Origin: a virus
Taxonomy: Duplodnaviria > Heunggongvirae > Uroviricota > Caudoviricetes
Strand: one strand, 5' to 3'
IMG/VR virus record: IMGVR_UViG_2671180770_000001
Span: 1-7,873 of that record
DNA: 7,873 nt
In this document: positions 1 to 7,873 of the stretch, piece after piece
How the letters are laid out: each line of letters starts with the position of its first letter
How positions within the stretch are numbered: the stretch's first letter is position 1
The notes under the pieces: generated by a model
Databases searched by the model: none
What the model saw: only the letters and a program-made list of their open reading frames with translations
Told to the model about the DNA's origin: nothing
Made by a program: the position numbers and the translations under genes

Positions 1-100
1 CCCCATCCGCCAGCACCGACATGATTCTGCTGGTGAAATCCACCATCACCACCAGAAACAGCAGGAGTGCAGCCACAGCCAGGCGCAGTTTTACCGTCAC
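1..100 (-). CDS. Partial small hydrophobic (predicted membrane) protein; N-terminal 33 codons only, continues beyond the window start
   Basis: GTG at 100..98 overlaps the TGA stop of the upstream TerB-like gene (GTGA), with GGAG about 8 nt upstream. The frame stays open to position 1 and reads MTVKLRLAVAALLLFLVVMVDFTSRIMSVLADG, with a hydrophobic stretch of about 20 residues. Not in the ORF track because it is truncated. Confidence 0.4.
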   Translation of the reverse strand, partial: MTVKLRLAVAALLLFLVVMVDFTSRIMSVLADG

Positions 101-528
101 TGGTGATTCTCCAGACGAAGACCCAGAACACCGGCAATCTCTTCCAGCACCTTGCGCTCTTCCGGCTCAATTTCGCCGTCTGCCTCCGCAATGGCCACCG
201 CCACATCCAGCACATCTTCCGCTTCACGCGTATCGTGTTTCACATCTTCAATTTCACGCAATGCCGCTCGACGACCAATTTTAAAGTTCGTATCCAGCTG
301 ACCGATAATGGTTGCGCTAATCGCATTAATTTCTGACGTAAACGCGGACAACGCAGGCTGGTTACGCAAGACCTGCTCGATCTTCGCTTTCTCTGAAGCC
401 TCACATTCACCATCTGCATAGGCCACCAGATAGGCAGCATTAATAACCGCCTGTGCCAGATCACGTTTCTCAAACTTTTTAATTTCCACTGCCGCTCGGC
501 GGGCTTTTTTACCAAAAATACCAAACAT
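97..528 (-). CDS. TerB-family (tellurite-resistance TerB-like fold) protein, 143 aa
   Basis: The track ORF 97..600 is trimmed to the internal ATG at 528, which has AAAGGAA 8 nt upstream. The protein carries two copies of the acidic ADG-x5-E-x3-(L/I) motif (AYADGECEASEKAKIEQVL and AEADGEIEPEERKVLEEIAGVLGL) that I associate with the TerB / DjlA N-terminal fold. Family assignment is from motif recognition, not a search. Confidence 0.75.
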   Translation of the reverse strand: MFGIFGKKARRAAVEIKKFEKRDLAQAVINAAYLVAYADGECEASEKAKIEQVLRNQPALSAFTSEINAISATIIGQLDTNFKIGRRAALREIEDVKHDTREAEDVLDVAVAIAEADGEIEPEERKVLEEIAGVLGLRLENHQ

Positions 529-658
529 CGTGACGTTCCTTTGGGTGGGTGAGCCAACGCCCGGGAGCGATCTGCCCACAGAGAAAGTCACACTGACCAC
601 TCCGTAAGCTCACCCCCGAAAGGCTCTGTGGTTGATATGCGCCGGGCGTGGCGCAGAT

Positions 659-685
659 ACAAAAAAAGCCCGCCGAAGCGAGCCT
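659..685 (-). terminator. Rho-independent terminator immediately downstream of the tRNA cluster
   Basis: On the minus-sense RNA: GCUCGC-UUCG-GCGGGC hairpin (6 bp including one G.U, UUCG tetraloop) followed by UUUUUUUGU (plus strand 659..667 is acaaaaaaa). Confidence 0.55.
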
Positions 686-696
686 GATAATAAATC

Positions 697-771
697 TGGA
701 GCGGGTAGCGGGAATCGAACCCGCATCATCAGCCTGGAAGGCTGAGGTAATAGCCATTATACGGTACCCGC
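697..771 (-). tRNA. tRNA-Gly, anticodon UCC
   Basis: Reverse complement folds as a cloverleaf: perfect 7-bp acceptor stem GCGGGTA/TACCCGC, anticodon arm TCAGC-CTTCCAG-GCTGA, T arm GCGGG-TTCGATT-CCCGC, encoded CCA. Resembles the E. coli glyT type. Confidence 0.85.
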
Positions 772-774
772 ATA

Positions 775-850
775 TGGTGCCGGCTACCGGAATCGAACTG
801 GCGACCTGATGATTACAAGTCAGTTGCTCTACCATTGGAGCTAAACCAGC
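775..850 (-). tRNA. tRNA-Thr-like, anticodon UGU; degenerate stems, possibly impaired
   Basis: Reverse complement GCTGGTTTAGCTCCAATGGTAGAGCAACTGACTTGTAATCATCAGGTCGCCAGTTCGATTCCGGTAGCCGGCACCA. D arm GCTC/GAGC, anticodon loop CTTGTAA, T loop TTCGATT, discriminator A and CCA fit a thrU-like tRNA. The acceptor stem has two G.U pairs, the anticodon stem two mismatches and the T stem one mismatch. Confidence 0.6.
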
Positions 851-855
851 ATGTT

Positions 856-930
856 TGGCGGGACAGCGTGGACTCGAACCACGATAAGAAGGTTAACAGC
901 CTTCCGTAATGACCTTTATACGACTGACCC
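856..930 (-). tRNA. tRNA-Asn-like, anticodon GUU
   Basis: Reverse complement GGGTCAGTCGTATAAAGGTCATTACGGAAGGCTGTTAACCTTCTTATCGTGGTTCGAGTCCACGCTGTCCCGCCA. Perfect anticodon stem GAAGG/CCTTC with loop CTGTTAA, perfect T arm CGTGG-TTCGAGT-CCACG, encoded CCA. One U.U mismatch in the acceptor stem. Unlike the host-type tRNA-Asn I remember, so probably phage-type. Confidence 0.7.
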
Positions 931-984
931 AAATAAAAAAAGCCACCGTTGCAACTTAAGAGTCACTAACGGCAGCTTACATCT

Positions 985-1497
985 TTAAACGGTATGATAT
1001 TTCATTCTGGCTGCCTCAAAAGCCGCAGCGGCAAGTTCGGCAGTGTCATGGTATCCAAGGTTAATACACTTTCCAGACGCATTAATTCTTGCTCTCCATT
1101 TCCCGTACTTAGCATCCCAAGACACGCCACGGTATCCAGATTTATTATTCTTCTGAATTTTCCTGTTTTGCATATTTTCGGAATGAGTGACAAGACGAAG
1201 ATTTGATATCCGGTTATCTGTTCTTACCCTGTTGATGTGATCAATAAAACCATCTGGCATGGTGCCATAAACAATCAACCATGCCAGTCTGTGAGCAGGG
1301 TATGCTTTACCATTAATCATAATCATTAAATACCCATCAGAATTTATTGATGAGCATTTCTTGAAAGCAAAACGAGAGTTCCATGTCAAAGTGGTCCTCT
1401 CTCTCCCCTGCCTCCACCTCCAGTGAAAGTCGCCTGATGATGGATTGTAATCAACAACAGAAAGCACCATTTCTGGCGTTAATTTTATTTCTTTCAT
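985..1497 (-). CDS. HNH homing endonuclease with C-terminal AP2-like DNA-binding domain, 170 aa
   Basis: ATG at 1497 with AAGG upstream, stop TAA at 985..987. HNH-type motif region GFIDHINRVRTDNRISNLRLVTHSENMQNR; AP2-like segment GYRGVSWDAKYGKWRARINASGKCINLGYHDTAELAAAAFEAARMKYH. Codon usage is visibly AT-richer than the neighbouring genes. Confidence 0.8.
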   Translation of the reverse strand: MKEIKLTPEMVLSVVDYNPSSGDFHWRWRQGRERTTLTWNSRFAFKKCSSINSDGYLMIMINGKAYPAHRLAWLIVYGTMPDGFIDHINRVRTDNRISNLRLVTHSENMQNRKIQKNNKSGYRGVSWDAKYGKWRARINASGKCINLGYHDTAELAAAAFEAARMKYHTV

Positions 1498-1615
1498 CGC
1501 TTTACCTTAGGGATAGAGCCTGTTCGCGTAGATATGACAGCCAAGAGCGGAGCGATGTTTCCACCACCATATCTCAGGCCCATATCACTAAGACTCTTGT
1601 TTTGATTGCACGCGA

Positions 1616-1644
1616 ATGCAAAAAAGCCCACAGGAGGTGGGCTT
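1616..1644 (-). terminator. tR'-like rho-independent terminator of the short late leader transcript
   Basis: Minus-sense AAGCCCAC-CUCCU-GUGGGCUU (8-bp stem) followed by UUUUUGC. It lies about 45 nt downstream of the putative pR' -10 element. Confidence 0.7.
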
Positions 1645-1684
1645 GTGATGGTTGCTGAATGCAAAAGCAGCAGCATATGTGAAT

Positions 1685-1714
1685 ATTATGGCTAAATGGC
1701 TAATTGCATGTCAA
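1685..1714 (-). promoter_or_regulatory. pR'-like late promoter (putative -35 and -10; qut expected to overlap)
   Basis: Minus-sense TTGACA (1714..1709), 18-nt spacer, CATAAT (1690..1685). The -35 lies in the last codons of the Q-like gene and the -10 directly after its stop, the position pR' occupies in lambdoid phages. Confidence 0.45.
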
Positions 1715-2210
1715 GGCTTTTAACAGCAACATGCTTAACTTTCTCAACACGTTTACGCATTTTGAAAGCATTTTGCATTGGTTGGTACAAAACAAATAAT
1801 GACGCTTTCAGGATATCGTCAATTTCGTTTCTACAGGTTGCCAGTGAAGGTTTTCTCCATCCCTCGCCACCGCGTCCACACATCTTGCGTGGCTTTGCAG
1901 TCGCGTGATAGTAGGATGCAATTGCTCTCTTAGATGAACCATGAGCGTAGTAGCTGAGGAGGATGCCAAAGGCTTTCTTGTCAATGTACATGACGGAATC
2001 GACGACCTGAGAAATCAACATTCCATCATCATCATTGCACATTGGTCTTGTCATAACTCTTCCCGGCTCTACGCTCTCCATGAACTTCGCTATTACGCTG
2101 CTCATGCGCTTTTCCAGACGACCTGAATAAACCCATGCGCCCCACAGTTCAAGCCAGCCATTCAGCCAATCGTGCTGTTCTTTGGTGAGGTTTAGTTCTC
2201 TTATGCCCAT
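1692..2210 (-). CDS. Q: Late-gene antitermination protein Q (Q-family, not the lambda Q type), 172 aa
   Basis: ATG at 2210 with AAGGGAG upstream. Sits between ninG and the pR'/tR' pair. N-terminal WLELWGAWV motif resembles the ERWGAWA motif of Q proteins from other lambdoid prophages. Confidence 0.7.
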   Translation of the reverse strand: MGIRELNLTKEQHDWLNGWLELWGAWVYSGRLEKRMSSVIAKFMESVEPGRVMTRPMCNDDDGMLISQVVDSVMYIDKKAFGILLSYYAHGSSKRAIASYYHATAKPRKMCGRGGEGWRKPSLATCRNEIDDILKASLFVLYQPMQNAFKMRKRVEKVKHVAVKSLDMQLAI

Positions 2211-2253
2211 GCGACTTCTCCCTTGTTATCTGGAATGGTTTTTACTGAGAGCG

Positions 2254-2859
2254 TCATGCGGCCTCACTTCTGCTGTTTCGCAGGTCTTTGAGTTTCTGTT
2301 GGTACTCTGCCTTGATGGCCCTGCACTCTTCGACAGTCCAGCGATGGCGGTTATGGTTTGATTCGATTTCGTCTACTGCTTCCTGCCCGATGCGGTTAAT
2401 CAGTTCGACGCGATACGGAACGAGATTTCCGCTTTTGTGCTGGTTGCACACCACGCATTGCTTGTGAATATTGCGTTCATCAAATCGGAGTTGAGGCGCC
2501 GCAGCAGTTGTCCGGTAATGTCCGGCATCCCACTGAGCAGACGTGAGCGTTCCGCACGAGATACATGGTAAGTCGCGGTCTCTTTCTCTGATGAAGGCGT
2601 TTACGGCTTGTTGGGCTTGTTTAATCCAGTAACTGCGGGGCTTTAAGGCGAGTTTTCGAATCTTAATTTTATCTTTCTGTTTCTGCTCCTCTCGTCGTCG
2701 TTTCTTCTCTGCTGTTTTTTCCGCCTTTTCGCGTTCTTTATTTCGTCGTTCGAGCGCTAATTTAGTTCCGTGTTCCGGGCTGCACCACCACTGATTTGAG
2801 AATGCCGGGTGAAACCATTCCTTACAGATTTTGCATTTCCTTCGCGCTGGTTTAGCCAT
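2254..2859 (-). CDS. ninG: NinG (Rap) recombination-associated protein, 201 aa
   Basis: Translation ([39 protein letters not shown]...[30 protein letters not shown]) is nearly identical to lambda NinG as I recall it. GGGGAGG upstream of the ATG; the start overlaps the upstream stop (TAATG). Confidence 0.93.
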
Positions 2860-3587
2860 TAAGCAGCCTCCCCTGTTACTTTAAGCATTCCGTTATCTAG
2901 CAGCTTTCTTGTCAGCCACTGTTGACCACGCCCGGTGATTTTTGTGGTGAACGATATCTGTATTCCGTGATTTGTGTTGACCGCTGTTTCTTTCACTGTG
3001 AAATAGCCACGATCCATATATTCCTGCATTGGCACATTGCGCCGGGAGCCTGAAGCAATAAGGATTTTGTGATCGCGCATCCACGCAAACAGTTTGTTTG
3101 GACCAATACCAACAACCTTTGCAAAGTTTCCAATCAAAATTCTGCTGGACTCGCCAACGCGATCGGCAAACTCAACTTTAGGTGCTGCGAGAGCAAGCTG
3201 TTTCTCCAGTTCAGCCTTCTGGCCTTCAAGGTCGGCCGCAAGGCGCAATGCCTCAGAAAAGGTTTGTGGTATTTTCGCGGTTGCCCCTTCGAGTTCTCGC
3301 CAGCGGTCAACAAGGCGAGCGGTGAATTCCGGCGACAACTGGGCAACGACAATAATGCTGTCGCGCTTACCTTGTTCGCCCTCAAAAACGTAAGCCTCTA
3401 CGCCACGAAGTAATCCTAAGTTATTGATTTTTTCGAAAACCACCATTGGGGGATTTCGGATCACACCTCGAACCGCCAGTCGTTCAATGGATTGTTTCAC
3501 CTTGTCATGACGACTTCCCACCAACTCAGCGATTTCAATGCTTGTCATTTTGATGACGTTGCTATTTATCAGCTCGTTCATTGTCAT
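2859..3587 (-). CDS. Rha-type N-terminal / KilAC (ANT) C-terminal antirepressor-like DNA-binding protein (Roi-like), 242 aa
   Basis: ATG at 3587 with GAGAGGA upstream. N-terminus ...[24 protein letters not shown]... resembles the Rha family; the C-terminal half resembles the phage antirepressor KilAC domain. Translationally coupled to ninG. Confidence 0.7.
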
Positions 3588-3610
3588 GTCCTCTCATATT
3601 GAAAATTCAG

Positions 3611-3638
3611 CAATAAAAAACCCAGCCGAAGCTGGGTT
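3611..3638 (-). terminator. Rho-independent terminator between the ORF6N gene and the Rha-like gene
   Basis: Minus-sense AACCCAGC-UUCG-GCUGGGUU (8-bp stem, UUCG tetraloop) followed by UUUUUUAUUG. Confidence 0.7.
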
Positions 3639-3655
3639 TGTTAAGTTGTCAATTG

Positions 3656-4342
3656 TCAGTAGCGATGCAGTGAAGGCGGCAACTCTTTGTTCTTAAGCCT
3701 TTCCCATGCCAGAAGGTTCGTCGGCCCGTCAGGCTCATAAATATCTATATCCCGCGTGTGATTAATTAAAACGCCCCTCGCCCTCCCGATGATATACGAG
3801 AACTCATAGCCGTAGTCGTGGCATATGCCGGAATAGCCAGACTGAATCAGTTTTAATGCGGGATACAACTCACGGAACAATGCCTGTGAGCGGTTGGCAT
3901 AATCCCATAGCCATACAAGGCTGTCTGTTTCTTTTGCGGAAAGCCCGTTGGGCTTCTTCTCTTGTTTGCCAGTATTTTTCTCGCACTGGCTGAAATAGCA
4001 GTCTTCCAATTTTTCGAACACTTCCCACGCCTGATCGGTTTCTAGCATTTTTGCGTGGCGGGCTGCGCCTCGTTCTGTCCAGAGGATGAGCGAGCGGGTT
4101 TTGGGAGAGATTTTCACCTCATTTTGCGACTCGTTTAAAACTAGTCGCAAATTTCTGAGTTCATCACCAACAGCTTTAAAGAAGTGCTTTCCCTCAATAA
4201 ACCGAGATTTATTTTCATGGTGATTCTGCTGTATACGGATTGTTTCTGTTCCATAAAGGCGGGCAAGCAACTCAGTTGTGATTACCGGAATCTGGTTATA
4301 GGTAACAGGGGAAAGGTTTTTGACAGAGATTTGAACAGTCAT
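3656..4342 (-). CDS. ORF6N (KilA-N-like) domain protein with uncharacterised C-terminal domain, 228 aa
   Basis: ATG at 4342 with GAGG 7 nt upstream. The N-terminal ~120 aa contain [16 protein letters not shown] and [31 protein letters not shown], matching the ORF6N pattern (FxEGKHYF ... LWTExG). The C-terminal ~100 aa are not recognisable to me. Confidence 0.7.
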
Positions 4343-4383
4343 AACGACCTCGCGTTTCGATAATTTTTACCTCACCACCTTTA

Positions 4384-4474
4384 GGTGCTAATCATCGTGG
4401 TGGCGAACTGTGCGGGGTTAGCACTACCGGTCGAAACATCCGGCGAGCCTTTCGGCTCCCCCACACAGCCCGCC
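4384..4474 (-). promoter_or_regulatory. Candidate structured RNA / regulatory element upstream of the ORF6N gene
   Basis: Arms 4402..4417 and 4459..4474 form a 16-bp stem in minus-sense RNA (13 Watson-Crick plus 3 G.U); the same three positions are A.C or C.A mismatches on the plus strand. It encloses a GAGCC-GAAA-GGCUC hairpin (GNRA loop, 4445..4458) and a CCGG/CCGG hairpin (4427..4443). GGTGCTAATC at 4384..4393 recurs at 4549..4558, with an inverted copy of GTGCTAA at 4418..4424. Confidence 0.3.
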
Positions 4475-4503
4475 ATAAATCGCGAATGTGACTGTGCTTA
4501 GCG

Positions 4504-4527
4504 CATAAAAAAACCGCCAGCGCGGTT
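4504..4527 (-). terminator. Candidate rho-independent terminator downstream of ninE (tR3/tR4-like)
   Basis: Minus-sense AACCGC-GCUG-GCGGUU (6-bp stem) followed by UUUUUUUAU. Confidence 0.5.
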
Positions 4528-4617
4528 ATGCACCGTTTCGATATCCGGGGTGCTAATCCCGACGCCAGATTTTGCTGGCGTGCGAGGAATATAGCCCCGA
4601 ATAAATCATCGCGTCAA

Positions 4618-4800
4618 TCACCTTGTTTTCCTCGCACGATGTCTTAGCCACCGGATATCCCACAGATGAGCCGTGTAATTGAAGGTTTTTACGTCAGATT
4701 CTTTTGGGATTGGCTTGCGTTTATTTCTGGAGCGTTTCGTTGGAAGGTATTTGCAGTTTTCGCAGATGATGTCGGTGAAACTTCGTCGCTGTCGCCTCAT
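4618..4800 (-). CDS. ninE: NinE, 60 aa
   Basis: Internal ATG at 4800 of track ORF 4618..4890, overlapping the Dam stop (ATGA). Translation [60 protein letters not shown] matches lambda NinE as I recall it. Confidence 0.85.
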
Positions 4801-5324
4801 GCCGCCCTCCTGACGCCCTGCCCGATCGCCATCAATGCCGCTTTGGATACGGTAGTAAACATCCGTCGAGGACTGATGAACGGTCGCCAAATCAGCAGCA
4901 TGGAGCCTTTACTGTTTCCCTTCTTCTCCAGCCCTGTCGATGGTTCGATAAAATTAATCCGTCCATCAGTGATAATGCGAACTTCGTCGACACTCTCCAG
5001 AGCCTTGCTGAACCATCCGACTGACATATCCTCTGGCACAAGCATAACTACCGTCTGTCGCTGTTGTATGCACTGCTCAGCGGCTTTTTCCACCCACGGC
5101 CTGATATTGCTGTACGGTGGGTTATTCCAGATTGCACCGTGGCTTACCCACTCAGAATTGAGCGCGTCGTCGGCCTCAGTTAGCCAGTGAGCACACAGAG
5201 CATTTTTGTCGCTCGCTGCCGAATCCAGCCAGAATCCAAACTCAATATCCAGTGCATCAAAAAGCCAAAGCGGCGTTTGCCAGCAGTCCTTGTCGTGTGC
5301 TGGCGTATTTGATTTGATAGTCAT
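4797..5324 (-). CDS. Phage orphan DNA N6-adenine methyltransferase (Dam family), 175 aa
   Basis: N-terminal [11 protein letters not shown] and the catalytic NPPY motif ([14 protein letters not shown]). ATG overlaps the ninB stop (ATGA). It occupies the slot held by ninC in lambda. Confidence 0.85.
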
Positions 5325-5767
5325 GCAGCCCTACCTTTTCGTTGTGACCATTCATACTCTCGCCGGGAGTCATCACTCCACCGCACGTTGCGCTCTGAGC
5401 CGAACCAGAACATGATTTCGATAAGCTCAGTCATGCTGGCCTTCCGCATTTTTCTGGTACGCACGCCAAGCATGACAACGCCACCGTCGATACCAGGCAC
5501 ACTTCGTTGCTCCAGTTTTTTGGTCTTAAGCCACAGGGCAGTGAACAGGTCTTTCCAGTCTTCCGGCGCCAGCCGTTGACCATGCCATAGCACCTGACGC
5601 GAAACATCGTTCAGCATCGGCCACATGCGGTCATTCTGCGCTTTGCTGCGCCTGGGTTCTTTAACGTGGACTTCGTGGGGTGACTTGTCGTCGATGGGTA
5701 GTGAGAGAATGGCGTCTATGGCGTTATTTCTGATTGCTTCGTTGCGAAGCAGAAAGGCTTGCTTCAT
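5321..5767 (-). CDS. ninB: NinB (Orf-family recombination mediator), 148 aa
   Basis: Track ORF 5321..5869 trimmed to the ATG at 5767, which has GGAGAG upstream. The segment ...DRMWPMLNDVSRQVLWHGQRL...[19 protein letters not shown] is collinear with lambda NinB. Confidence 0.88.
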   Translation of the reverse strand: MKQAFLLRNEAIRNNAIDAILSLPIDDKSPHEVHVKEPRRSKAQNDRMWPMLNDVSRQVLWHGQRLAPEDWKDLFTALWLKTKKLEQRSVPGIDGGVVMLGVRTRKMRKASMTELIEIMFWFGSERNVRWSDDSRREYEWSQRKGRAA

Positions 5768-5960
5768 CTCCTGCTCTCCGGTTCCATTTTTCAGCCGCCG
5801 CAGCAACTGATGGTGCCCATGCCCCCCTGGCTTCACAGAGGTCACATTCTGCATAGCCCCACACATCAATATTTATTCCGGCCTCAACCCACAGACGAGC
5901 ATTACCGCCGCAAAACGGACATTCTTTTAGCTTTGGCTGGGTTAATGATAGGTCGCTCAT
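5724..5960 (-). CDS. Lar-family restriction-alleviation-like zinc-ribbon protein, 78 aa
   Basis: Internal ATG at 5960 of track ORF 5724..6167, with AGGAG upstream. CPFCGG...C..C zinc-ribbon motif (KLKECPFCGGNARLWVEAGINIDVWGYAECDLCEARGAW). The 3' end overlaps the ninB start by 44 nt in another frame. Confidence 0.55.
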   Translation of the reverse strand: MSDLSLTQPKLKECPFCGGNARLWVEAGINIDVWGYAECDLCEARGAWAPSVAAAAEKWNRRAGDEASLSASQRSNQK

Positions 5961-5970
5961 GCTCGCTCCT

Positions 5971-6186
5971 TCACTTAAAATCCAGACTCCGGATAATTCT
6001 GTTGCGCTGAAACTCATTGTTGAGTTTGAACAACCGTCGAAGAACACGGTCACGCGGATAGCGTCGTGCGGCAGGTGAATGCTCATACAACTCATCAAGC
6101 GGCAAACTGGACGATGAACGATACCGATACCAACGCACCAACTCTTCACGAAAATTAGCCCTGACAAGCTCAGCTATCGTACTCAT
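5971..6186 (-). CDS. Hypothetical small Arg-rich protein, 71 aa
   Basis: ATG at 6186 with GGAGG 9 nt upstream; first gene after the tR2-like terminator, stop 10 nt before the Lar-like start. No family recognised. Confidence 0.5.
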   Translation of the reverse strand: MSTIAELVRANFREELVRWYRYRSSSSLPLDELYEHSPAARRYPRDRVLRRLFKLNNEFQRNRIIRSLDFK

Positions 6187-6212
6187 TTCTTAAAGCCTCC
6201 AATTACTCTTCC

Positions 6213-6246
6213 TCAAATAAAAAGGCCTGCGATTACCAGCAGGCCT
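6213..6246 (-). terminator. tR2-like rho-independent terminator downstream of ren
   Basis: Minus-sense AGGCCUGC-n8-GCAGGCCU (8-bp stem) followed by UUUUAUUUGAGG. Position between ren and the nin genes matches lambda tR2. Confidence 0.7.
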
Positions 6247-6271
6247 GTTACAAGCTCAGTGATGTAGATGG

Positions 6272-6562
6272 TCATCTTTTAACTCCATATACCGCCAATA
6301 CCCGTTTCATCGCGGCACTCTGGCGACACTCCTTAAAAATCAGGTTCGTGCTCACCTTTCCTTCCCGTTCTTCCCTGGTAGCAAACCGGTAATACACCGT
6401 TCGCCAGACCTTACCATCAATGACAAGGATTCCTGCCCGCGCCATTTTAGCCGCAGCCTGATTTATACTGGTTACGGTTGCGCCTGTTAGCGCGGCAACG
6501 TCCGGCGCACAGAAGCTATTATGCGTCCCCAGGTAATGAATAATTGCCTCTTTGCCCGTCAT
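6272..6562 (-). CDS. ren: Ren (Rex-exclusion escape protein), 96 aa
   Basis: Translation MTGKEAIIHYLGTHNSFCAPDVAALTGATVTSINQAAAKMARAGILVIDGKVWRTVYYRFATREEREGK... is near-identical to lambda Ren as I recall it. ATG overlaps the P stop (ATGA). Confidence 0.9.
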   Translation of the reverse strand: MTGKEAIIHYLGTHNSFCAPDVAALTGATVTSINQAAAKMARAGILVIDGKVWRTVYYRFATREEREGKVSTNLIFKECRQSAAMKRVLAVYGVKR

Positions 6563-7260
6563 ACACTTGCTCCTTTCAGTCCGAACTTAGCTTTAATTTC
6601 TGCGATCTTCGCCAGAGCCTGAACATGATTTAGAGGTCTGCCGCCCATGACAGGAAGTTGTTTTACTGGTTCAGGAATCACCTCACCACGGTTAATTCTC
6701 GCAGTCATATGGACAAGCTCATCTGCGGCCTTGCGCCGTAATTCCGCGTCAGTCAGCGCATTGGCCCGCATGTTCTGGTACAGGTTGGTAACCAGCCAGT
6801 AGTGCGCGTTCGATTTCCACGGATAAGACTCTGCATCCGGATACAGGCCTCGCTTCCGGCAATACTCGTAAACCATATCAACCAGCTCGCTGACGTTTGG
6901 CAGTCCGGCGATAACGGATGCTTCTTCCCGGCACCATGCAACAAACTGCCCGGGTGATGGAAGAAATGGTCGATTCTGCCGACGGGCTACGCGCATTCCT
7001 GCGTTAACCTGTTCCATCGAGGTGATCCCGTTTTCCCGGAAAGCCAGAACCCACTGGCGGCGGATTTCATTCAGTTCGTTCTGGTCCCGGTTAGCCAGAC
7101 TCGCCGGGAAAGTTGCCAGTAACTGGCTGAACACACCGTTGATGATCTGCGCTACCTGTTGTACCTGCGGCTTTTCGTCGTACTGTTCCGGCATGTTGTT
7201 GGTGATCCGACGCATCTGCTCACGGTCAAAGTTAACCATCTGTGCGGCGATGTTTTTCAT
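6559..7260 (-). CDS. P: Replication protein P (DnaB helicase loader), 233 aa
   Basis: Translation MKNIAAQMVNFDREQMRRITNNMPEQYDEKPQVQQVAQIINGVFSQLLATFPASLANRDQNE... is near-identical to lambda P. ATG overlaps the O stop (ATGA). Confidence 0.95.
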   Translation of the reverse strand: MKNIAAQMVNFDREQMRRITNNMPEQYDEKPQVQQVAQIINGVFSQLLATFPASLANRDQNELNEIRRQWVLAFRENGITSMEQVNAGMRVARRQNRPFLPSPGQFVAWCREEASVIAGLPNVSELVDMVYEYCRKRGLYPDAESYPWKSNAHYWLVTNLYQNMRANALTDAELRRKAADELVHMTARINRGEVIPEPVKQLPVMGGRPLNHVQALAKIAEIKAKFGLKGASV

Positions 7261-7873
7261 AAATCCACCCCGTAAATCCAGTCAGTGTTTGTCAGGTCGA
7301 GTTTTGGTTTTCCAGCTGTCACGCCAGCCTGTTGCTTGTTACGGTTGATTTCGAGTTGGGTCCACTTGTCGCGGAGTTTGGCCGGACTTAGCACGTTACC
7401 GGACCAGAAGTTGTCCTGGCATGCCCAGCAGAACAGCACGCACATGTCGCGGTGGTTACGTCCGTCACGTTCACGCATCAGGCGGATATCGTTAGCCCAC
7501 CCTGCAAAATTCGGTTTTCTGGCTGATGGTGCGATGGTCTTCACCATGTCAAACATCCACTCTGCGGCGGTCAGGTCTTCTGCTGTTCCCCACTTGCTGC
7601 CGCTCTGAATTGCAGCATCCGGTTTAACCACAGAAAGATCGTTTTCTGGCTGGTCAGAGGATTCGCCAGAATTCTCGGACGAATAATCTTTTCTTTTTTC
7701 TTTTGTAATAGTGTCTTTTGTGTCCCCCTGTTTTGAGGGATAGCAATCCCCTAATTTGAGGGATGTTTTATCCCTCGTTTTAGGGGGGGTTCCCTCGTTT
7801 TGAGGGATGTCCCTCATTTTAGGGGAACCTCCCTCGTTTTGAGGGATGCACCATTCTGAGATGTTTTTATTTG
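7257..7873 (-). CDS. O: Replication initiator O, C-terminal ~205 codons; N-terminus lies beyond the window end
   Basis: The frame is open from 7873 down to the TGA at 7257..7259. Translation ...NKNISEWCIPQNEGGSPKMRDIPQNEGTPPKTRDKTSLKLGDCYPSKQGDTKDTITKEKRKDYSSENSGESSDQPENDLSVVKPD...TNTDWIYGVDL matches lambda O and contains the ori-encoded segment. Confidence 0.93.
   Translation of the reverse strand, partial: NKNISEWCIPQNEGGSPKMRDIPQNEGTPPKTRDKTSLKLGDCYPSKQGDTKDTITKEKRKDYSSENSGESSDQPENDLSVVKPDAAIQSGSKWGTAEDLTAAEWMFDMVKTIAPSARKPNFAGWANDIRLMRERDGRNHRDMCVLFCWACQDNFWSGNVLSPAKLRDKWTQLEINRNKQQAGVTAGKPKLDLTNTDWIYGVDL
7680..7846. repeat. ori-lambda-type replication origin: six iterons plus adjacent AT-rich region, inside the O reading frame
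   Basis: Six copies of the palindromic iteron TCCCTC-n4/5-GAGGGA at 7723..7740, 7747..7763, 7771..7787, 7791..7807, 7810..7826 and 7830..7846, spaced 19 to 24 bp. Flanked by the AT-rich stretch cgaataatcttttcttttttcttttgtaatagtgtcttttg (7680..7720). Confidence 0.85.

Follow-up and report, generated by a model that had tools for sequence, protein, structure and literature searches.

In P2-lambda interference, the P2 protein OLD kills by cutting the host transfer RNA (tRNA) for threonine with the anticodon UGU (PMC12445682). Cleavage occurs 3' of the C in each of two paired CNG motifs of the anticodon stem (nucleotides 28-30 and 40-42) and needs A37 (PMC12445682). Phage tRNA-Thr(UGU) genes, that of phage 21 among them, rescue from OLD with the anticodon arm as the determinant of resistance, overexpression of the host gene thrU gives no protection, and tRNA-Asn(GUU), tRNA-Lys(UUU) and tRNA-Val(UAC) are cleaved more slowly (PMC12445682). 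OLD has also been reported to deplete Thr(UGU), Gly(UCC), fMet, Val(UAC) and Pro(UGG), and the Thr tRNA of the lambdoid phage HK446 to be a strong counter-defence (bioRxiv 10.64898/2026.07.10.737580). PARIS AriB cuts Lys(UUU), Thr(UGU) and Asn(GUU) at U36AAUC↓A41; a change of U39 abolishes cleavage, and the Lys, Thr and Asn variants of phage T5 jointly neutralise PARIS (PMC12409363). Here we analyse three tRNA genes in a 7,873-nucleotide stretch of a Caudoviricetes genome (IMG/VR record IMGVR_UViG_2671180770_000001, positions 1 to 7,873), which as a whole we call the window. Their anticodons match the depleted host tRNAs: UGU for Thr (OLD, AriB), UCC for Gly (OLD) and GUU for Asn (AriB, and more slowly OLD). 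The middle gene is a chimera of a phage and a host-type tRNA-Thr, and we lean towards reading the three genes as a recombinant, Q-dependent lambdoid cassette that replaces tRNAs destroyed by Toprim nucleases of the OLD and PARIS type.

The use of phage tRNAs against tRNA-cleaving immune nucleases is a topic of current work (2024-2026), with most of the documentation so far coming from virulent phages that have large tRNA arrays. The present locus suggests that temperate lambdoid phages, through recombination inside tRNA genes, put together small late-leader sets that match the targets.

A chimeric tRNA-Thr between tRNA-Asn and tRNA-Gly

The tRNA block consists of the following parts, in the order of transcription.

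856-930, minus strand: tRNA-Asn(GUU), 75 nucleotides with encoded CCA, G73 and U4.U69; called by ARAGORN and Rfam.
851-855, minus strand: spacer AACAT, 5 nucleotides, the same as in phage 21.
775-850, minus strand: tRNA-Thr(UGU), 76 nucleotides with A73 and encoded CCA; called by Rfam.
825-850, minus strand: tRNA-Thr nucleotides 1-26 (5' strand of the acceptor stem and D arm), phage 21/HK446 type, identical to both.
825-833, minus strand: tRNA-Thr nucleotides 18-26, the likely crossover block GGTAGAGCA, from the alignment of copies.
775-824, minus strand: tRNA-Thr nucleotides 27-76, host thrU type, from comparison with K-12 thrU and prophage Thr-Gly modules.
772-774, minus strand: spacer TAT, 3 nucleotides, identical in thrU-type Thr-Gly prophage modules.
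697-771, minus strand: tRNA-Gly(UCC), 75 nucleotides with encoded CCA, derived from host glyT; called by ARAGORN and Rfam.

A first-pass annotation made from the sequence alone had read this block as a compact, phage-type cluster of three tRNA genes between the HNH gene and a terminator. We could confirm this reading with the tRNA model RF00005 (Rfam, gathering threshold 29), which gives three full-length matches on the minus strand, each covering model positions 1-71 of 71 (Asn 859-930, 55.3 bits; Thr 778-850, 49.0 bits; Gly 700-771, 55.4 bits), and public annotation agrees. A position-by-position parse likewise bore out the anticodons GUU, UGU and UCC, the spacers of 5 and 3 nucleotides, and every mismatch and G.U pair that had been listed for the Asn and Thr genes. 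The flanks are also as described, with an HNH_3+AP2 endonuclease gene at 985-1497 on one side and a terminator-like hairpin at 685-666 on the other. The expectation that tRNA predictors would call these genes held in part: ARAGORN, run on the window, calls tRNA-Gly(tcc) at 697-771 and tRNA-Asn(gtt) at 856-930 and misses the Thr gene, while Rfam finds all three.

The irregularities of the Thr gene can be traced to its two parents. The window is identical to phage 21 across the late leader, tRNA-Asn (75 of 75 nucleotides), the AACAT spacer and the first 26 nucleotides of tRNA-Thr (GCTGGTTTAGCTCCAATGGTAGAGCA). From nucleotide 27 to 76 the gene follows host thrU, from which it differs by four changes, namely the adjacent pair G42U/U43C (window 809/808), A49G and U68C (window 783). 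Host-identical thrU copies adjoin a glyT-like Gly gene across the TAT spacer in Thr-Gly modules such as those of locus L003, phi467 and vB_EcoS-683R6. Judged from these identities, the triplet is a tR'-Asn-Thr module of phage 21 type joined to a ThrU-Gly module within the Thr gene. Since GGTAGAGCA is the sole block common to both parents near the switch, it is the likely crossover point. The same junction recurs in a second chimera (L132), whose thrU part is unmutated and whose Gly gene resembles that of the host, so recombination at this junction probably occurred more than once, or L132 keeps an earlier state. A scan of viral sequences with GGTAGAGCA-N5-CTTGTAA-N5-AGGTC returned, among the matches listed, unrelated Thr tRNAs and revealed the likeness to host thrU. 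A resemblance between the 3' end of the Thr gene and DNA upstream of chromosomal glyT, seen on BLAST extension, was too weak to interpret.

With this origin, most of the structural defects are accounted for. The acceptor stem contains U3.G70 and U6.G67 because a 5' strand of phage 21 type faces a 3' strand of thrU type. One form of the chimera with U68 (T68 in the gene) has a third G.U pair, G5.U68; the C68 of the window restores G5-C68 and a predicted 5.6 kcal/mol of cloverleaf stability. In the T stem, which also has G49.U65, the A52.C62 mismatch is present in chromosomal K-12 thrU as well and is thus a native trait of a working tRNA. C14, the only departure of the Thr gene from the invariant nucleotides (U8, A14, G18G19, U33, G53, U54U55C56, A58, C61) and the open seven-nucleotide anticodon loop, is inherited from the phage 21 Thr gene, which is experimentally functional (PMC12445682; bioRxiv 10.64898/2026.07.10.737580). 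The mismatches left after this inheritance are A27.C43 and C28.U42 in the anticodon stem, which arise from the adjacent changes G42U and U43C (hereafter the UC allele).

The Asn gene has the complete set of invariant nucleotides and an open loop. The first-pass annotation had called the Gly gene canonical, which is not fully the case: position 8 is C where U is standard, and G38 is able to pair with C32, which closes the loop in the predicted fold. Compared with host glyT it carries C6U/G67A, U8C (window 764) and A38G (window 734), and keeps the CAG/CUG motif of the host anticodon stem.

All three genes fit the positions that serve as synthetase identity elements in E. coli. The Asn gene has GUU and G73 with encoded CCA; the Thr gene has G1-C72, C2-G71, G35, U36 and an intact A73-CCA; and the Gly gene has U73, G1-C72, C2-G71, G3-C70, C35 and C36, again with encoded CCA. 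No sign of a suppressor or frameshift tRNA was seen in the folds examined. An anticodon stem of the Thr gene slipped by three positions, with a 10-nucleotide loop, and an alternative hairpin from RNAfold were dismissed, as host thrU shares a minimum-free-energy fold that is not a cloverleaf.

Anticodon arms and nuclease target motifs

The anticodon arms of the three genes compare with those of their host counterparts and of phage 21 as follows, each entry giving nucleotides 28-30/40-42 and then nucleotides 36-41.

Host thrU: CUG/CAG; UAAUCA; five stem pairs.
Window tRNA-Thr: CUG/CAU; UAAUCA; 27:43 and 28:42 open.
Phage 21/HK446 tRNA-Thr: UCG/CGA; UAAGCG; 27:43 open.
Host tRNA-Asn: CGG/CCG; UAAUCC.
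Window tRNA-Asn: AAG/CUU; UAACCU; arm GAAGG/CCUUC.
Host glyT: CAG/CUG; CAAGCU; A37 present.
Window tRNA-Gly: CAG/CUG; CAGGCU; A38G (C32-G38) as the sole difference from the host arm.

In the Thr gene of the window, CAG has become CAU and the pairs 27:43 and 28:42 are open, which resembles the published two-factor recipe for OLD resistance (a changed motif and a shortened stem), with the 5' CUG and UAAUCA kept. The Asn gene contains neither a CNG motif nor the UAAU motif of host tRNA-Asn, in place of which it has UAAC. Resistance of the UC allele to the nuclease would follow from this resemblance to the published rule, and we infer it on that ground. HK446, whose Thr tRNA has been validated, was considered as a carrier of the UC allele and ruled out, as its sequence is of phage 21 type.

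Distribution of the UC allele

We searched for the UC allele as an exact anticodon-arm pattern in IMG/VR, metagenome contigs and GTDB representative genomes. In IMG/VR, 28 contigs carry it (12 of them in a non-chimeric gene) and two further contigs carry a related variant (G42C/U43C); the variant scan found no gene that combines G42 with a nucleotide other than U at position 43. The metagenome scan returned six contigs only. Among the GTDB representative genomes the sole match is a prophage contig of E. albertii, and none of these genomes has the allele in a chromosomal thrU. The lineage comprises 12 distinct sequences, one of which (in L147 and L153) is thrU with these two changes alone, and it appears in the cluster contexts Thr-Gly, Met(CAU)-Arg(UCU)-Thr-Gly, Met-Lys(UUU)-Thr-Gly and Met-Arg-Thr-Val(UAC). 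On this distribution, the UC allele is recurrent, phage-specific and older than the chimera.

Outside positions 42 and 43, the lineage shows 17 types of substitution: 10 in unpaired positions, five that keep pairing and two that break a pair, both singletons. About 46% of substitutions would be expected to break pairs without constraint. When the changes introduced by recombination are left out, 2 of 11 are pair-breaking (p ~0.06, binomial estimate), which is suggestive only. What true decay looks like can be seen at 5042-5200 of L168, a 113-kb metagenome contig (OLSJ01000041.1), where a remnant of the triplet type has a Thr gene with 11 further changes, including the T loop, and a truncated Gly gene, and no predictor calls a tRNA.

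Of 5,426 complete E. coli genomes, 13 contain the full triplet (O55:H7 and some others); phage JLK-2012 has it too. In two loci with the UC allele, ARAGORN reports an additional tRNA-like gene with a two-base "anticodon" (tRNA-???, cg; L147 10454-10527 and L152 3220-3293). These genes sit in prophage clusters of the order Met-(Arg)-???-Thr-Arg(CCG)-Gly, to which the UC-allele Thr gene also belongs.

Which member of the triplet is constrained

Nineteen loci that carry the triplet, representing six haplotypes, were compared; as they are few and related to one another, the following counts are indications and not proof. The Asn gene has no segregating site in 75 positions and the Thr gene one in 76, the compensatory change at position 68. 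The Gly gene has six in 75 (U8C, G10A, G39U, G53C, C63U and U66C), four of which break Watson-Crick pairs, and the spacer and terminator have eight in 42. Gly differs from Asn and Thr together (p = 0.006) and not clearly from the spacer (p = 0.13), whereas Asn and Thr together differ from the spacer (p = 2e-5).

Rfam scores follow a similar pattern. The Asn gene scores 55.3 bits in all copies. For the Gly gene the score falls from 64.9 bits in host glyT to 55.4 in the window and to 53.7, 48.0, 46.9 and 45.9 in sister haplotypes. The Thr series runs from thrU (73.8) through thrU with the UC allele (63.6), phage 21 (61.5) and L132 (58.6) to the window (49.0) and the T68 chimera (47.0). These comparisons indicate that Asn and Thr are conserved and that Gly varies like the flanking non-coding DNA. 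The Gly gene looks like a passenger under drift, or perhaps a member that is still adapting. Mismatch counts and predictor failures can therefore mislead, the irregular Thr gene being conserved and the regular-looking Gly gene drifting.

Homology between the triplet loci ends sharply at about 654 and about 979, and at least three different cargos follow downstream. Rfam finds the small RNA genes isrC and STnc100 flanking some of these loci (L069 8212-8334; L127 2744-2933).

Transcription context

The genes of the region all lie on the minus strand, in the order NinG, Q, pR', HNH cassette, leader with tR', three tRNAs, terminator and TerB/TciA-like gene.

2254-2859, minus strand: NinG, the gene upstream of Q.
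1692-2210, minus strand: Q antiterminator of 172 amino acids, Sf6/HK629 type (phage 21 Q family); PF06530 1.3e-25, phrog_943 3.3e-93.
1685-1714, minus strand: late promoter pR', TTGACA-18-CATAAT, 11 of 12 consensus positions, overlapping the end of Q.
981-1684, minus strand: HNH endonuclease cassette of about 0.7 kb, inserted in the late leader, with an HNH_3+AP2 coding sequence at 985-1497 (Pfam, PHROG).
936-980, minus strand: late leader of phage 21 type with pause element TAAGCTG, tR' terminator hairpin (978-940) and U7, from identity to phage 21.
659-685, minus strand: terminator-like hairpin AGGCTCGCTTCGGCGGGCTT (685-666) and T-run that close the tRNA block, from a hairpin scan.
97-528, minus strand: TerB/TciA-like cargo gene; Pfam TerB 9e-16, phrog_632 1.5e-68, match from residue 25 of the open reading frame 97-600.

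The Q region is 98% identical to those of HK629 and Sf6, and pR' matches that annotated in Sf6 with 100% identity as far as window position 1685. Homology to phage 21 begins at the annotated transcription start of its pR', and the tR' hairpin has a folding energy of -20.2 kcal/mol (z = -5.1). In Sf6 the same Q and pR' are followed directly by qut, tR', tRNA-Asn and tRNA-Thr. A simple promoter scan of the minus strand between pR' and the tRNAs gave no further promoter-like site. Since Q, pR' and leader are arranged as in phage 21 and Sf6, the tRNAs belong to the Q-dependent late transcript. The TerB-like cargo has counterparts annotated as tciA or TerB family in JLK-2012 and in E. coli UTME-3.

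The HNH cassette is inserted just after the -10 element and start of pR'; it opens with a leader mimic, TATGCTGC (at about 1677), a look-alike of the leader pause element TAAGCTGC, and has a terminator-like hairpin of its own (1644-1624). Sf6 and phage 21 are without this segment, and their leader joins window position 980 directly. The same cassette is present in HK629, which has no tRNAs, and in UTME-3 behind a pR' of phage 21 type; in all it stands behind two types of pR', with copies at window 981-1684 (minus strand), L005 8282-9016 and L157 1735-2441. It looks like a homing element aimed at the conserved late leader. An open reading frame of 60 amino acids (1494-1676, minus strand) overlaps the hairpin at 1644-1624, has no Pfam or PHROG match and is probably no gene.

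Further upstream, Rfam identifies isrK (4507-4581), a C4 antisense RNA (4396-4480) and a c4 a1/b1 target element (4542-4594), all on the minus strand and directly upstream of an open reading frame for an ORF6N/P22AR-type antirepressor (3656-4342, minus strand). Together these form a C4-ant immunity unit in the style of P1/P7 within a lambdoid nin region.

Proposed function and alternatives

From the three genes, their transcription context, the chimerism, the origins of the mismatches, the allele distribution and the pattern of conservation, we arrive at the following account, to which we give a little more credence than not. A crossover at GGTAGAGCA between a module of phage-21/Sf6/HK446 type (pR' leader, tR', Asn, Thr) and a host-derived thrU/glyT Thr-Gly module would have assembled the cassette. 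It is transcribed only when Q carries RNA polymerase past the terminators of the leader. Processing by RNase P and trimming of the 3' ends should then yield three tRNAs with CCA and the expected discriminator bases in place, and these may substitute for host species destroyed during infection by Toprim tRNA nucleases borne by prophages or satellites. In the Thr gene, G42U/U43C removes the 3' half of the paired CNG motif of OLD and unpairs 27:43 and 28:42. Asn and Thr would thus act as nuclease-insensitive replacements, with Gly, which has the host motif, eroding in this lineage; an added supply for ACA and GGA codons would be a compatible secondary benefit. The account presumes that the chimera is processed, charged and used, and that late expression is suitably timed relative to activation of the nuclease. 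Taken together, the three anticodons cover reported targets of both OLD and PARIS.

Several observations weigh against this account. First, the Thr gene of the window looks compromised: it lacks an ARAGORN call, its predicted cloverleaf energy is -14.3 kcal/mol compared with -21.5 for thrU, and the Prokaryotic Genome Annotation Pipeline (PGAP) leaves it unannotated in six O55:H7 genomes with the T68 form (H68-H73, e.g., NC_013941 317640-317873), in which Asn and Gly are annotated. Second, its arm is an imperfect match to the resistant type. For resistance to OLD the CNG must be altered and the 27:43 pair lost, and a change in one factor gives no protection (PMC12445682); in the window Thr both the CUG half-site on the 5' side and the UAAUC↓A site of AriB persist, and the validated OLD-resistant arm of phage 21/HK446 is the very part that it has lost. 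The Gly gene keeps the host CAG/CUG motif and collects damaging changes, and is therefore no resistant replacement by the known rule. Third, one Thr tRNA alone failed to rescue lambda from OLD (bioRxiv 10.64898/2026.07.10.737580), and Q-dependent late expression may come after OLD has been triggered. Finally, the UC allele is rare: complete E. coli genomes (5,426) contain 13 triplets and about six non-chimeric copies. A thrU-type query finds 6,485 places in 5,425 complete E. coli records, hence about 1,000 extra thrU-like copies; these presumably belong to Thr-Gly modules of prophages, and almost all have the host allele; the catalogued Thr-Gly phages have the host allele as well.

The strongest competitor is codon supplementation, in which the tRNAs raise the decoders for ACA, GGA/GGG and AAU/AAC in late or cargo genes and the stem allele is incidental. 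The first-pass annotation had already suggested that the set may reflect the codon demand of the downstream cargo. We ran the codon-usage check on the prophage genes of UTME-3, the closest full relative, and 31 K-12 genes. The prophage coding sequences are enriched for ACA (odds ratio 2.2, p = 3e-4), GGA (3.3, p = 6e-10), GGG (2.2) and AAU (1.9), kindred prophage clusters decode rare NNA codons (Ile/Met-CAU, Arg-UCU, Thr-UGU, Gly-UCC), and plain dosage would fit the host-identical allele, which most thrU-type copies in prophages and every catalogued Thr-Gly phage have. The suggestion about the cargo finds weak support, as the genes that follow the tRNAs directly show no significant enrichment for ACA (p = 0.08) or GGA (p = 0.25), and enrichment peaks in early and nin genes, which are transcribed ahead of the late tRNAs. 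Moreover, E. coli genomes carry a median of four tRNA-Asn genes, so Asn supply is unlikely to be limiting. Codon supplementation also gives no account of a stem-opening allele that recurs in 12 backgrounds while the rest of the gene stays intact, or of phage Asn and Thr anticodon arms that avoid the host cleavage motifs, and thrU overexpression fails against OLD (PMC12445682). We consider it unlikely as the principal explanation. A codon supply for Thr and Gly is plausible as a side benefit, which leaves Asn and the anticodon-arm pattern unexplained.

Less probable still is a reading in which the Thr gene is a scar left by recombination and is turning into a pseudogene: the chimeric acceptor stem, the open anticodon stem and C14 would make it non-functional or nearly so, and it would persist only because the block is young. 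The low Rfam score (49.0 bits, compared with 73.8 for thrU and 61.5 for phage 21), the ARAGORN and PGAP omissions and a predicted cloverleaf 7 kcal/mol weaker than that of thrU would all suit such a gene. The triplet is also rare and shallow in divergence, with six haplotypes, and L168 demonstrates that a truly decayed copy exists. The first-pass annotation had raised decay on the basis of the irregular stems, a suggestion that finds no support in our comparison. The G.U pairs are a footprint of recombination, A52.C62 occurs in host thrU and C14 in the functional Thr gene of phage 21/HK446, and the stem allele recurs in 12 backgrounds and predates the chimera. ARAGORN calls the non-chimeric UC-allele genes as tRNA-Thr and also calls the L132 chimera, and PGAP annotates the C68 form of the window-type gene. 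The lone Thr polymorphism in the 19 loci restores a Watson-Crick pair, as about 6% of random substitutions would, whereas Gly and the spacer vary 6- to 15-fold more than Thr. G1-C72, C2-G71, G35 and U36, which are identity positions for threonyl-tRNA synthetase, are intact together with A73-CCA. On our analysis, the window Thr is more likely to be an anti-defence tool than a decaying gene.

That the tRNA genes matter mainly as DNA, either as recombination joints of mosaic modules or as homing targets of the HNH cassette and with no selected RNA function, is very improbable: locus homology does break at the edges of the tRNA block (~979 and ~654), at least two crossovers (window type and L132) took place within the Thr gene, the Asn-Thr module stands behind three different Q/pR' types and the HNH cassette lies directly upstream, but a role as DNA does not predict the kept cloverleaf pairing, U68C, the identity elements and CCA or arm motifs unlike the host targets, the phage 21/HK446 Thr RNA has a demonstrated function, and HK629 has the HNH cassette without any tRNAs.

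If the replacement account is right for this locus, it may extend to lambdoid late-leader tRNA clusters as a class, an extension we put forward tentatively and with more doubt than the account itself. Clusters of the types Asn-Thr, Thr-Gly, Met-Arg-Thr-Gly, Met-Lys-Thr-Gly and Met-Arg-Thr-Val would be modular cassettes against Toprim tRNA nucleases, reshuffled by crossovers within tRNA genes and with hybrids mended by compensatory mutation such as U68C. The UC allele would be a minimal, two-nucleotide escape from OLD that keeps charging and decoding, and A38G (C32-G38) and G39U in Gly might be parallel attempts at a changed effective geometry of the anticodon stem in the second main target of OLD. 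As thrU with two adjacent changes the UC allele is a very simple one, and would show how little suffices to escape OLD and still work as a tRNA. Genes of this kind are easily missed or dropped by tRNA predictors and PGAP, as in the six O55:H7 genomes and the RefSeq record of HK446.

Comparison with known systems

The papers searched gave no account of the triplet, of the chimerism of the Thr gene or of the significance of the UC allele. The Stx-phage set ileZ-argN-argO, which we take to lie likewise between Q/pR' and cargo or lysis genes, has other anticodons and sequences. In the Stx phage phi467 (L161, 746-2648), stxA and stxB stand immediately upstream of a host-identical thrU/glyT Thr-Gly pair, so that the tRNAs come after the toxin genes.

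The nearest described relative of the 5' half is the Asn(GUU)-Thr(UGU) pair of phages 21, HK446 and Sf6, which occupies the same slot after pR' and tR', has the same anticodons and is identical in leader, tR', Asn, AACAT and Thr nucleotides 1-26; its Thr gene is known as "tRNA-Thr21", an OLD-resistant rescue tRNA (PMC12445682; bioRxiv 10.64898/2026.07.10.737580). The pair differs in the anticodon arm (GUCGC/GCGAA in phage 21/HK446, ACUGA/UCAUC in the window), and the window adds the Gly gene and an HNH cassette that splits the leader. In HK446 (L162, NC_019714) we found Asn and Thr genes, both unannotated, at 1598-1672 and 1678-1753 in the late leader, the Thr gene being identical to that of phage 21; the preprint mentions a single Thr tRNA in this phage (bioRxiv 10.64898/2026.07.10.737580).

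The 3' half, comprising Thr nucleotides 27-76, TAT and Gly, is of the type found in Thr-Gly modules (phi467, vB_EcoS-683R6 and others) and in chromosomal thrU-tyrU-glyT-thrT. Catalogued Thr-Gly members have the host GU allele and U8 and A38 in Gly, whereas the window has G42U/U43C, A49G and U68C in Thr, U8C and A38G in Gly, and a foreign 5' third in its Thr gene. The closest match to the whole is Escherichia phage JLK-2012 (JQ347801), with a triplet 99.7-100% identical, annotated as tRNA-Asn/Thr/Gly, and the same downstream tciA; it differs in having a 162-amino-acid Q immediately upstream, with no HNH gene annotated between Q and the tRNAs. UTME-3 has tRNA-Asn/Thr/Gly annotated at the same place.

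A further parallel is with the escape variants of T5/T4 type (T5 Lys/Thr/Asn against AriB and "Thr6" against OLD), which share the anticodons of the nuclease targets, the arm changes at or near the cleavage sites and the loss of 27:43. Those variants belong to virulent phages with large arrays and have experimental tests behind them, whereas the window offers a temperate phage and a two-nucleotide derivative of a host gene, known from sequence, that keeps the 5' CUG and the AriB site.

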